A stretch of 64,000 bases of DNA from Escherichia phage vB_EcoM_OE5505: sequence record NC_054926.1, one strand, 5' to 3'. Every line of letters begins with the position of its first letter. The first letter of the stretch is position 1. This document shows positions 6,003 through 7,403 of the stretch, piece after piece. The notes under the pieces are model-generated. The model had not been told where the DNA came from and did not search any database. It saw nothing but the letters and a program-made list of their open reading frames with translations. Position numbers and translations under genes: made by a program.

Positions 6003-6078
6003 TGGTCGAGGCAGTAGGGATCGAACCTACGACCTAGGACTTAGAAGGTCCTTGCTCTTCCTTCTGAGCTATGCCCCG
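6003..6078 (-). tRNA. tRNA-Arg (anticodon UCU)
   Basis: Hand-folded cloverleaf, 76 nt, anticodon loop CUUCUAA, T-loop TTCGATC, CCA encoded. Confidence 0.85.
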
Positions 6079-6082
6079 TAAT

Positions 6083-6158
6083 TGGGGTGACCGATGGGAG
6101 TCGAACCCATGACTACGAGAATCACAATCTCGAGTTCTACCAACTGAACTACGGCCAC
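6083..6158 (-). tRNA. tRNA-His (anticodon GUG)
   Basis: 76 nt cloverleaf, anticodon loop UUGUGAU, discriminator C73 typical of tRNA-His; closely resembles E. coli tRNA-His as recalled. Confidence 0.8.
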
Positions 6159-6272
6159 ATTAATACCTACTCCAACAATCAAGATGTCTTCACACGAAAT
6201 TAAGAGAAGAGTGATCAGTTCAACCCCTATAATCGCGTCAAGTAGATATTAATGTGACAGTTGTCACAAATT

Positions 6273-6347
6273 TGGCGGACGTGATAGGATTCGAACCTAT
6301 AACCAATCGCTTAACAGGCGATCGCTCTGCCATTGAGCTACACATCC
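6273..6347 (-). tRNA. tRNA-Asn (anticodon GUU)
   Basis: 75 nt cloverleaf, anticodon loop CUGUUAA, T-loop TTCGAAT, CCA encoded. Confidence 0.8.
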
Positions 6348-6351
6348 AAAT

Positions 6352-6438
6352 TGGTGGGGAGTGGTGGAGTCGAACCACCCGAGTCGCAATGACAATGGAT
6401 TTACAGTCCACACCGCTACCTCTACGGGATAACTCCCC
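6352..6438 (-). tRNA. tRNA-Tyr (anticodon GUA), type II
   Basis: 87 nt with long variable arm, anticodon loop CUGUAAA, perfect acceptor GGGGAGT/ACTCCCC. Confidence 0.8.
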
Positions 6439-6447
6439 AAATTAATT

Positions 6448-6522
6448 TGGTGGCCCTGGGTGGAATTGAACCACCATCTGGCGATTATGAGTCGCTTGCT
6501 TGAACCTTCCAGCTACAGGGCC
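6448..6522 (-). tRNA. tRNA with CAU anticodon (Ile-lysidine type or Met)
   Basis: 75 nt cloverleaf, anticodon loop CUCAUAA; T4 tRNA-Ile also carries CAU. Confidence 0.75.
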
Positions 6523-6531
6523 AAATTTTTC

Positions 6532-7017
6532 TTATTTTATGTAATATTTATTTAAAAACTTTCTAGCTTGAGTATGGCTAACATTTATAGCGTTTGCATA
6601 ATTTTTAATAAAACCTCGTTCATCCATATTAAAATTTTCTAATATTTTTAATCGTCTAATTATCTCATCTTGGCTTAAGGTACTTGCATTATTTTTAGAA
6701 ATTTTTTCTAAAGACTGCACTGAGTGTTTTCGACCATTAAAATTAAAATTTTTAGGTTTTGGAGGAAATCTATCATTTAGTCTCGCATCTTTTGTATTTT
6801 GATTATTAGTTGCGCAATATATGTTATTTAATGAGTATGGTCCTTTATCACCAAAACGACACATACAGTATTCATGACCCTTTCTTCCACGCTTATCATA
6901 ATTTCCTGTTGATTTCCACCAATTTAACCACTCATCAAAAGTTAAATTCCATTCAATGTTTCTACGTATAGCAGAATTCCGCTGAGAAATATATTTTGCA
7001 TAATCTTCTTTCATCAC
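6532..7017 (-). CDS. Homing-endonuclease-like protein (degenerate HNH-like N-terminus, C-terminal HTH)
   Basis: 161 aa; Cys/His motif GHEYCMCRF...LNNIYCATNNQN; C-terminal ...NVSHTQARKFLNKYY resembles the HTH tail of the adjacent HNH ORF. Confidence 0.6.
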   Translation of the reverse strand: MMKEDYAKYISQRNSAIRRNIEWNLTFDEWLNWWKSTGNYDKRGRKGHEYCMCRFGDKGPYSLNNIYCATNNQNTKDARLNDRFPPKPKNFNFNGRKHSVQSLEKISKNNASTLSQDEIIRRLKILENFNMDERGFIKNYANAINVSHTQARKFLNKYYIK

Positions 7018-7061
7018 AAATTTCTCTACTTATTACATGCACTAAGCTAAATCAGCAAAAC

Positions 7062-7151
7062 TGGCGGAGGCGATAGGATTTGAACCTATGAGTCGCCGGA
7101 GCGACTGCCGGTTTTCAAGACCGGTGCATTAAACCACTCTGCCACGCCTCC
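7062..7151 (-). tRNA. tRNA-Ser (anticodon UGA), type II
   Basis: 90 nt, long variable arm, anticodon loop CUUGAAA, acceptor GGAGGCG/CGCCTCC, CCA encoded. Confidence 0.85.
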
Positions 7152-7153
7152 AG

Positions 7154-7227
7154 TCTCCATACAAGGATTTGAACCTTGGACCTCCTGATCCCAAATCAGG
7201 CGCTCTACCAAACTGAGCTACACGGAG
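7154..7227 (-). tRNA. tRNA-Pro (anticodon UGG), CCA not encoded
   Basis: 74 nt, anticodon loop UUUGGGA, only 2 nt from tRNA-Ser (Pro-Ser dimer as in T4). Confidence 0.8.
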
Positions 7228-7237
7228 TAAATTAAAT

Positions 7238-7311
7238 TGGAGCGGATAATGAGAATCGAACTCACATCATCAGATTGGAAGTCTGAGGTAATGCCATTAT
7301 ACGATATCCGC
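7238..7311 (-). tRNA. tRNA-Gly (anticodon UCC)
   Basis: 74 nt cloverleaf, anticodon loop CUUCCAA, acceptor GCGGATA/TATCCGC, CCA encoded. Confidence 0.85.
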
Positions 7312-7316
7312 AAATT

Positions 7317-7403
7317 TGGTGCGAGAAGTGGGACTCGAACCCACAAGGAAATCATTCCGCAGCATTTTAAGTGCTGTGCCTTTACCAATTTGACCATTCT
7401 CGC
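7317..7403 (-). tRNA. tRNA-Leu (anticodon UAA), type II
   Basis: 87 nt, long variable arm, anticodon loop CUUAAAA, acceptor GCGAGAA/TTCTCGC. Confidence 0.85.

Follow-up and report, generated by a model that had tools for sequence, protein, structure and literature searches.

Escherichia phage vB_EcoM_OE5505 (sequence record NC_054926.1) carries a cluster of tRNA genes that raises two questions: how did its repertoire come to differ from that of phage T4, and how can a tRNA-His that is encoded without a guanosine at position -1 (G-1) obtain its identity element? Both questions were approached with a computational analysis of a stretch of 64,000 nucleotides (nt), which is called the window in the following and has the cluster on its minus strand. 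The explanation that was preferred overall, with a probability of about 75%, is that the locus is a T2-like Tequatrovirus tRNA cluster built from cassettes, and that it includes a genuine tRNA-His with a leader helix that pairs U-1.

The gene content was determined with ARAGORN, which called exactly nine tRNA genes in the whole 64 kb, all of them on the minus strand between positions 6003 and 7403. The same nine tRNAs were found with the Rfam model RF00005, at 59-74 bits (top score 74.1) apart from tRNA-Tyr, which had the lowest score with 30.3 bits. A gene was accepted when its RF00005 score exceeded the gathering score of 29 bits and the tRNA finder called an anticodon, and all nine passed. 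An earlier note, made from the sequence alone, had listed nine minus-strand tRNAs with their anticodons, and both programs found the same nine, with every anticodon called by ARAGORN as listed there. The T4 set had been given there as Gln, Leu, Gly, Pro, Ser, Thr, Ile and Arg, and exactly this set was obtained from the annotation of NC_000866 and from an ARAGORN run on that record. The repertoire thus indeed differs from that of T4, with His, Asn and Tyr present in the window and absent from the T4 reference. The absence of Gln and Thr was also noted, and it holds for intact genes, neither of which was called by ARAGORN anywhere in the 64 kb; however, both genes persist as 5′ scars.

A sequence with 100% identity to the window is that of the Tequatrovirus PYps5T, a Yersinia phage (MT828552), and parts of the region are matched by more than 1,100 phage records. 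Positions 5200-8700 correspond to 143234-146734 of MT828552.1, where the GenBank record holds coding sequence (CDS) features only and leaves the nine tRNAs and rnaC/rnaD unannotated. The order that defines a T4-type cluster (Gln, Leu, Gly, Pro, Ser, Thr, Ile, (segB), Arg) was not found. What was found is the gene order of phage T2, with 96-97% identity to the T2L sequence (AJ880101) over 7406-6270 and 6113-5294. Two traits of the T2 type are lacking: an HNH gene takes the place of the tRNA-Gln at the 5′ end, and Asn is not directly followed by Arg, as 190 nt with a leader and tRNA-His lie between them. The sequence of the T2L cluster, with its Tyr, Asn and CAU tRNAs and its different Arg, has been known since 2008, when it was also set against that of T4 (PMC2330249), and the repertoire difference is therefore not new. 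A comparison with T4 alone overstates the surprise, since the non-T4 set (CAU, Tyr, Asn and the different Arg) is this already published T2-type cluster.

The locus was compared with T4, T2L (AJ880101), phage a51 and phage Lutter using BLAST breakpoints and base-level inspection of the junctions. The Leu-Gly-Pro-Ser block was 98.6% identical to T4, and the flanks were 91-94% identical, which puts numbers on the earlier description of genes near-identical to T4. Where T4 and T2L have tRNA-Gln, only the first 7 nt (8031-8025) and the last 2-3 nt of that gene were kept, and its interior is occupied by the HNH gene, which ends 6 nt before tRNA-Leu. Of tRNA-Thr the first 16 nt are left, while the remaining approximately 60 nt at the 3′ side are replaced by a 518-nt cassette with an open reading frame (ORF) of 160 amino acids (aa); phage a51, 99.3-99.9% identical on both sides of this site, has an intact tRNA-Thr there. 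With 96-97% identity, the distal block (CAU, Tyr, Asn, Arg, trna.2, rnaD, rnaC) belongs to the T2 type, and the Arg and CAU genes in it differ from those of T4 (48/76 and 47/75 positions identical). The cluster lacks segB; T2L tRNA-Asn holds the preferred SegB cleavage site (PMC2330249). The 190 nt between Asn and Arg, a 114-nt leader plus tRNA-His, are flanked by CCAAAT and CCCAAT, and the gap between Asn and Arg measures 4 nt in T2L and Lutter. This leader-His block occurs at 95% identity or more in about 193 phage records; other Tevenvirinae genera have it behind tRNA-Gln, with an identity of 83-92%. The HNH, ORF and leader-His cassettes together were found only in PYps5T within the phage collection. 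The sharp breakpoints and the tRNA scars in otherwise 91-99% identical DNA show cassette replacement, and they bear out the proposal that the locus was remodelled independently of its neighbours. Gln and Thr are missing because two gene-sized insertions overwrote them.

The following history would account for the cluster. It would be transcribed on the minus strand as a multi-tRNA precursor, and its repertoire would differ from that of T4 because exchangeable cassettes make up the locus, a hot-spot of recombination and homing. The proximal Leu-Gly-Pro-Ser part is common to both phages, with tRNA-Gln overwritten by the HNH gene and tRNA-Thr truncated by the insertion of a second nuclease-like ORF. 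The distal T2-type block (Ile2-CAU, Tyr, Asn, the different Arg, trna.2, rnaD and rnaC) stands in place of Ile-segB-Arg of T4, and the 190-nt leader and tRNA-His cassette, shared with other Tevenvirinae genera, would have entered between Asn and Arg at the CCAAAT/CCCAAT microhomology.

The second question concerns this tRNA-His. The gene reads ...TTAAT/GTGGCCG...CGGTCAC-C-CCA, with G1 at 6158 and T(-1) at 6159; the C73 discriminator, the T before G1 and the lack of an encoded G-1, all pointed out in the earlier note, could thus be read directly from the sequence. Two features of a bacterial tRNA-His, C73 and the GUG anticodon, are present and the third, the encoded G-1, is missing. The alpha-proteobacterial type without G-1 (A73, U72) does not apply either, because the phage tRNA-His has C72 and C73. 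The hisR gene of the host E. coli is 80% identical to the phage gene and has G at -1. A shifted register, with G6158 as G-1 of an acceptor stem of 8 base pairs (bp), was excluded: U8, A9 and the D stem fit the standard register only, and the tail would become CCCA.

The -1 base was then compared more widely by searching one conserved tRNA-His core in three collections (cellular genomes, IMG/VR and metagenomes) and in an annotated phage set. All 17 cellular genes with the same core had G at -1, and T was found in all 16 IMG/VR viral contigs and in all seven phage-collection loci that matched the core pattern. The metagenome contigs comprised 32 with G, mostly single-tRNA contigs of cellular type, and 19 with T, which were multi-tRNA contigs of phage type. 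T at -1 was also seen in the tRNA-His genes of T5 and mycobacteriophage Bread, which fall outside the core pattern. The lack of G-1 is thus no peculiarity of the window; it is a lineage-wide, though not universal, property of phage tRNA-His genes. The generalization that all phage tRNA-His lack G-1 had to be rejected, as three phage-like contigs with 17-20 tRNAs (L052, L078 and L053) and the Erwinia phages pEa_SNUABM_44 and phiEa21-4 encode it. In the jumbo phage pEa_SNUABM_44, G-1 is combined with A73 (...TAGCCAC-A-CCA), which is eukaryote-like and not the bacterial G-1:C73. A T at -1 is not a signal per se either: before other phage tRNAs T makes up 52% and G 3.5%. As T is the default, the meaningful fact is the absent G and not the T.

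Two further observations were made in these collections. A separate freshwater phage-like lineage, with 5-9 tRNAs per contig (L028, L036, L051, L056, L069, L071, L075 and L082, from metagenomes and IMG/VR), has its tRNA-His 1-2 nt after tRNA-Ser; these genes have T at -1 and C73 and lack an encoded CCA. Near-identical tRNA-His genes were started by ARAGORN sometimes at G-1 (GGCGGCC...) and sometimes at G+1, and automated tallies of the -1 base therefore need a register check. Two Verrucomicrobia-type contigs (L043 and L066), which had seemed to carry T(-1) tRNA-His genes without a stem, in fact have G-1 genes that ARAGORN had begun one base early.

C73 was kept in all inspected T4-like and T5-like tRNA-His genes, and the stems appeared to be compensated between genera, as judged by eye and not by a formal count. 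The retention of C73 and the seemingly compensated stems make the gene look as if it is under selection as a tRNA. The G-1:C73 pair redirects RNase P to the -2/-1 site, and without G-1 the charging drops by a factor of more than 100 (PMC5499578). For histidyl-tRNA synthetase (HisRS), the chief use of G-1 is to place the 5′ phosphate correctly; lineages truly without G-1 have changed base 73 to A, with co-evolution of HisRS (PMC9976931). The phage tRNA-His fits neither pattern, having neither G-1:C73 nor A73 with an altered HisRS.

A structured leader was found directly upstream of the tRNA-His. Its stem is formed by a 5′ arm, ATTAATATCTACTT (6253-6240), and a 3′ arm, GAGTAGGTATTAAT (6172-6159, i.e., -14 to -1), with a variable interior. 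In all T4-like tRNA-His genes that have a spacer, its beginning is paired with its final 14 nt, U-1 included. The stem is retained around interiors of very different length, the shortest being a loop of 4 nt in Kosakonia phage 305 and the longest measuring about 80 nt. Covariation was quantified in 14 distinct T4-like leaders, the stem arms of which were picked by sequence anchors and not by structure. Of 196 cells, 190 (96.9%) were paired, and six of the 14 pairs were changed on both sides. None of 500 shuffles reached any of the covariation measures, and slid registers paired in only 36-50%. The A:U pair at -1 was invariant in all 14 T4-like leaders, and it is also present in T5, Eps7 and Pectobacterium phage DU_PP_V. 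An Rfam family for the leader was not found, even at E <= 1.

The covariation also bears on whether the leader acts as RNA at all. An inverted repeat in a locus rich in homing endonucleases could be a DNA element, such as a promoter, a terminator, a cruciform or an endonuclease target, all the more as SegB-type enzymes cut within tRNA genes (PMC2330249). However, there were 31 G.U cells, which would be mismatches on the other strand or in a cruciform, and no A.C cells, and this asymmetry places the structure in the tRNA-sense RNA and not in the DNA or an antisense transcript. A promoter scan of the 114-nt leader was negative on the tRNA strand (a TTGACG lacks a usable -10 element), a T-tract is missing, and the stem is kept around an interior of very different length. 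A DNA-level function is thus very improbable, and a palindrome acting in DNA or an antisense structure was rejected as the origin of the pairing.

Adjacent to the stem, the motif GUCAC just 5′ of it, a copy of the 3′ strand of the acceptor stem, can extend the helix by 5-7 bp into G1-C5 to a total of approximately 20 bp. The leader of Tequatroviruses opens with the perfect palindrome TGTGAC-AACT-GTCACA (window 6268-6253, minus strand), and two mutually exclusive leader structures are possible, because its second half, GUCACA, can alternatively pair with U-1 and G1-C5. The extension was rejected as a universal feature, as it is present in only about half of the leaders. Measured against the stem expected for RNase III (approximately 20 bp or two turns of mostly regular double-stranded RNA), the conserved stem has 14 bp and reaches approximately 20 bp only with the GUCAC extension.

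T5, Eps7 and DU_PP_V have a closing stem of 14-16 bp that ends exactly at T-1, with CCAC before it. The sequences of these stems differ from those of the T4-like phages and the interiors are unrelated, and the leader helix appears to have arisen independently in T4-like and T5-like phages. In the T5 record the enclosed RNA is annotated as a stable RNA, "RNAIII", that ends at -2, and the tRNA-His as 78 nt starting with T(-1), which is annotation and not proof. The association between helix and -1 base was analyzed over all distinct tRNA-His contexts, using a spacer of at least 30 nt and a stem of at least 9 bp. The stem was present in about 20 of 20 tRNA-His genes with T at -1 and such a spacer, and in none of 31 genes with G at -1 (maximum 8 bp).

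Taken as a module of tRNA-His maturation, the approximately 14-bp helix, which pairs U-1, would stack against the acceptor stem of a genuine, selected tRNA. It would give RNase III access to the precursor, a role known for the region upstream of T4 tRNA-Gln, or fix the cut position of RNase P; RNase III participates in T4 tRNA maturation (PMC4810235). Several observations weigh against this view or other parts of the overall explanation. Expression, 5′ end and charging of the tRNA-His are all extrapolated from sequence. U-1 is the default in phage tRNAs and preferred for canonical RNase P cleavage, so that alone it implies nothing special. The acceptor-strand extension is found in the window and five other variants and is absent from seven. 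Abutting stems before other tRNAs are rare (11 of 136), mainly Asp, Asn and T4-type Gln; as such stems do precede Asp and Asn tRNAs, the helix may be a general module of structured spacer RNA that is not bound to His. Nor can the helix be a universal solution, because T(-1) tRNA-His genes with a 1-2-nt spacer (the freshwater lineage, Bread) cannot form it. The anti-defence role of Tyr and Asn tRNAs, which is treated below, was demonstrated for T6 and T5 and not for the present phage.

In other genera and in T5 there are structured spacers of 120-160 nt, the closing stems of which have 13-20 bp and end 1-3 nt upstream of tRNA-Asp (L008, L009, L017, L022) or tRNA-Asn (L029, L016); one example is AAAGTTTACTTTC...GAAAGTAAATTT. 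Asp, Asn and His are all tRNAs with a GUN anticodon (the queuosine family), which may be a coincidence or may reflect a shared processing module.

How the 5′ end is made was weighed between two readings. If maturation were canonical, RNase P would cut at -1/+1 and the mature tRNA-His would start at G+1 with a 7-bp acceptor stem; inefficient charging by HisRS would be offset by high expression, and the hairpin would be a spacer, an insulator, an RNase III element or a stable RNA like T5 RNAIII, unrelated to His identity. This is given slightly less than an even chance. U is the commonest base before phage tRNAs. It also favours canonical cleavage by E. coli RNase P. The -2/-1 shift in E. coli needs the G-1:C73 pair (PMC5499578), which is impossible with U-1. 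T(-1) tRNA-His genes with a 1-2-nt spacer exist without any helix, comparable closing stems precede Asp, Asn and Gln tRNAs, and the T5 record lists the leader as a separate stable RNA. However, canonical processing sits badly with the lineages that dispensed with G-1 and changed base 73 to A along with HisRS (PMC9976931), and with the association of the helix with T(-1) genes that have a spacer.

Alternatively, U-1 would be retained: the A:U-1 pair in the leader would substitute for the G-1:C73 pair of the host and, together with C73 as a negative determinant for the canonical site, shift the cut to -2/-1. The cut would be made by RNase P, or by RNase III on the approximately 20-bp helix, and the mature U-1 would carry the 5′ phosphate where HisRS needs it. 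The invariant A:U at -1 in both phage groups, the tie between helix and absent G-1 and the constant C73 fit this proposal, as do the 78-nt tRNA-His and the end of RNAIII at -2 in the T5 record, although these coordinates may be an annotation convention and not data. HisRS recognizes mainly the 5′ phosphate position of N-1 (PMC9976931), and human cells contain mature tRNA-His with U-1 (PMC5238791). Conversely, position -2 is also base-paired, unlike in known RNase P sites, U-1 is what canonical RNase P cleavage prefers, the T(-1) genes with a 1-2-nt spacer do without a helix, and no report of U-1 retention was found in the searchable literature. U-1 retention is therefore regarded as a tentative possibility, with the odds against it. 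In its most general form, namely that T4-like and T5-like phages replaced the near-universal encoded G-1 by a conserved leader helix, with its closing A:U-1 pair stacked on the acceptor stem, that directs a non-canonical cut (by RNase P at -2/-1, or by RNase III), which would leave U-1 with a 5′ phosphate that is accepted by the unmodified host HisRS, the idea is rather unlikely.

The extra tRNAs would top up or replace host decoders during infection. Codons were counted in all ORFs of at least 150 aa over the whole window. Per 1000 codons, 61 were Asn, 42 Tyr and 12.8 His codons, and AUA, AGA, UUA, GGA, CCA and UCA were all well used. The very frequent Asn and Tyr codons and the use of the latter six codons would fit a pure codon supply, in which the AT-rich codon usage alone accounts for the repertoire, without any connection to host defences. 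The rarity of His codons does not fit, and neither does the loss of the Gln and Thr tRNAs: CAA (24.8 per 1000) and ACA (20.6 per 1000) are frequent, though their tRNAs (Gln-UUG and Thr-UGU) are gone, so that the loss of these genes was evidently tolerated. In addition, tRNA-Tyr and tRNA-Asn of phages have been shown experimentally to counteract defences that cleave tRNAs, and pure codon supply is thus improbable. Septu cleaves tRNA-Tyr. T2 carries a tRNA-Tyr and resists the system, T4 has none and is sensitive to it, and T6 evades it through amplification of its own tRNA-Tyr; a function of phage tRNA-Tyr has been published against both Septu and retron-Eco7 (PMC13096335). The AriB nuclease of PARIS attacks the Lys, Thr and Asn tRNAs of the host, and probably yields minor products from His, while T5 tRNAs rescue infection (bioRxiv 10.1101/2025.02.04.636281). 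For Tyr and Asn of the present phage, both the supply of heavily used decoders and the replacement of attacked host tRNAs are plausible. For His, replacement of a host tRNA under attack would be the more likely role because codon demand is low. Tyr, Asn and His represent three of the four GUN-anticodon tRNAs, and it is tempting to speculate that the cassette may help the phage to outlast nucleases that target this family.

All features of the cluster are collected in Table 1.

Table 1. Features of the tRNA cluster and its surroundings (positions in the window).
Feature	Position	Strand	Basis and remarks
HNH endonuclease gene, 609 nt, 202 aa from ATG 8018	7410..8018	-	PHROG 14736; same limits as the PYps5T CDS
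tRNA-Gln scar TGGGAAT (first 7 nt)	8025..8031	-	base comparison with T4 and T2L; breakpoints 8025 and 7406; HNH cassette follows immediately
tRNA-Leu(UAA)	7317..7403	-	ARAGORN taa and Rfam; CCA encoded; identical to T4
tRNA-Gly(UCC)	7238..7311	-	ARAGORN tcc and Rfam; CCA encoded; 73/74 identical to T4
tRNA-Pro(UGG)	7153..7227	-	ARAGORN tgg and Rfam; without encoded CCA; identical to T4
tRNA-Ser(UGA)	7062..7151	-	ARAGORN tga and Rfam; CCA encoded
tRNA-Thr scar GCTGATTTAGCTtAGT (first 16 nt)	7041..7056	-	15/16 identical to the a51 and T4 Thr genes
160-aa ORF (161 aa from GTG 7017)	6532..7014	-	homologue of T2L trna.1; predicted PacI-like fold and helix-turn-helix-like domain
tRNA with anticodon CAU, assigned tRNA-Ile2	6448..6522	-	ARAGORN cat and Rfam; identical to the T2L gene annotated "Met"
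tRNA-Tyr(GUA)	6352..6438	-	ARAGORN gta and Rfam, 30.3 bits; long variable arm; 85/87 identical to T2L
tRNA-Asn(GUU)	6273..6347	-	ARAGORN gtt and Rfam; identical to the T2L gene
Structured leader of tRNA-His, 114 nt	6159..6272	-	folds and covariation
tRNA-His(GUG)	6083..6158	-	ARAGORN gtg and Rfam; G1-C72, C73, encoded CCA, T at -1
tRNA-Arg(UCU), T2 type	6003..6078	-	ARAGORN tct and Rfam; 74/76 identical to T2L, only 48/76 to T4 Arg
116-aa ORF, homologue of T2L trna.2	5634..5984	-	PHROG 3355
rnaD (species II stable RNA) homologue	5521..5637	-	mapped from T2L and T4 annotations; 116/116 to T2L
rnaC (species I stable RNA) homologue	5375..5514	-	138/140 to T2L, 138/139 to T4

The earlier note had left open whether the CAU tRNA is of the Ile-lysidine type or a Met tRNA. 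It shares 62 of 75 positions with an E. coli gene annotated by RefSeq as tRNA-Ile(CAT), including an identical anticodon arm (AGCGA-CTCATAA-TCGCC) and identical first six acceptor pairs (GGCCCT/AGGGCC), and only 47-52 of 75 with T4 Ile and with the Ile2, Met and fMet genes of T5, which decides for the Ile2 type and against Met. The TilS determinants reported by Ikeuchi and colleagues in 2005 lie in the anticodon arm and in the base pairs C4-G69 and C5-G68. The gene was assigned to tRNA-Ile2 of the lysidine type, and its product would read AUA after lysidine formation by the host. Among the proximal genes, tRNA-Pro abuts tRNA-Ser, so that both form a Pro-Ser dimer in a T4-like arrangement. The CCA of tRNA-Ser is encoded in the window, T2L and a51 and not in T4, that of tRNA-Pro is absent from all of these, and the T4 property that both tRNAs of the dimer need CCA addition is therefore only half conserved. 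For rnaD and rnaC, no Rfam family was found; Rfam matched only tRNAs, even at E <= 1. Beyond rnaC, a terminator scan revealed a terminator-like hairpin at 5303-5326.

The protein encoded in the interior of tRNA-Gln matched PHROG 14736, "HNH endonuclease", with E = 7e-123 and nine further HNH PHROGs; the Pfam HNH model gave 17.3 bits, below its cut-off of 21.4. The cassette occurs in 62 phage records, and relatives that lack it match only from query position 616 on and carry tRNA-Gln. With an HNH domain and a presence/absence polymorphism at a fixed site, the gene is a putative free-standing HNH homing endonuclease gene. A mechanical ORF list starts it at TTG 8042, upstream of and across the Gln scar; ATG 8018 is the likelier start, as it lies 6 nt after the scar and agrees with the GenBank CDS.

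The 160-aa ORF encodes a protein with a predicted PacI-like (HNH-type) fold in the N-terminal part and a C-terminal half that resembles helix-turn-helix domains, and NUMOD3 is present in some homologues. A sequence-based family could not be assigned: Pfam, NCBIfam and phmmer against the PDB yielded no match, and a BLASTP comparison with the HNH protein encoded next to it showed no significant similarity. With moderate confidence, it is a putative free-standing homing-endonuclease-like gene inside the former tRNA-Thr, a layout that is typical of such genes. The ORF cassette was found in 24 records of the phage collection. In T2L, trna.1 has a 2-nt deletion near its 5′ end (AAATATTTCTC versus AAATATATTTCTC; T2L 500-600 versus window 7017-6990), because of which its annotated CDS starts later (133 aa), while the copy in the window is intact (160-161 aa).

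The exact sequence of the locus is already in GenBank, and the scars and the Ile2 assignment are small additions. The annotation gap of the identical record, which lists no tRNAs, has been filled. While the repertoire difference is ordinary, the unusually clean scars show endonuclease genes deleting and shuffling T-even tRNA genes. Apparently new are the absence of G-1 across phage tRNA-His and the covarying leader helix common to T4-like and T5-like phages. No paper on 5′ ends of phage tRNA-His, T5 RNAIII, U-1, a systematic G-1 absence or a leader helix was found in the searchable literature, the coverage of which leaves out most subscription papers from before 2000, so that a prior description is possible. 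In all domains of life, HisRS relies on G-1 as its main identity element. Phages have to make do with the HisRS of the host; nevertheless, G-1 is consistently left out in two large phage families, which carry a covarying leader helix in its place. Should the helix set the 5′ end, this would mean a new way of producing tRNA-His identity, and RNase P or RNase III would follow a substrate rule that is likewise new. If U-1 is retained, it would constitute a third route to the tRNA-His identity nucleotide, beside an encoded G-1 and addition by Thg1; T4-like phages are not known to have a Thg1-like enzyme. If the helix does not set the 5′ end, phages keep a tRNA that would be expected to be charged approximately 100-fold worse, which would point beyond plain decoding. 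The results bear on current work on phage tRNAs as countermeasures to tRNA-cleaving defence systems.

Among known systems, the T2L cluster (AJ880101; Brok-Volchanskaya et al. 2008, PMC2330249) is the closest, with the same order Leu, Gly, Pro, Ser, trna.1, CAU, Tyr, Asn, Arg, trna.2, rnaD, rnaC, 96-97% identity and the same tRNA-Thr scar. It differs in keeping tRNA-Gln without an HNH gene, in lacking the leader and tRNA-His cassette, and in a trna.1 truncated by the 2-nt deletion. T4 (NC_000866) shares the Leu-Gly-Pro-Ser block at 98.6%, trna.2-trna.4 upstream and rnaD/rnaC downstream, and it too has a homing endonuclease gene among the tRNAs. In contrast to the window, it has Gln, Thr, its own Ile(CAU) and Arg and the GIY-YIG enzyme SegB, and lacks Tyr, Asn and His. 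E. coli hisR resembles the phage tRNA-His in the GUG anticodon, the acceptor start G1-U2-G3-G4-C5, C73 and the encoded CCA, with 80% identity, but has G-1 and non-canonical RNase P maturation, whereas the T(-1) of the phage pairs with the leader and not with C73. In alpha-proteobacteria such as Caulobacter, G-1 is likewise not encoded, but A73 and a changed HisRS go along with it (PMC9976931); the phage tRNA-His keeps C73 and must use the unaltered HisRS of the host. The RNase III hairpin of T4 tRNA-Gln is also a precursor stem-loop upstream of a tRNA, but it is short and local and ends several nt before +1. The RNAIII region of T5 has the same design, with a closing stem that ends at -1 of tRNA-His.

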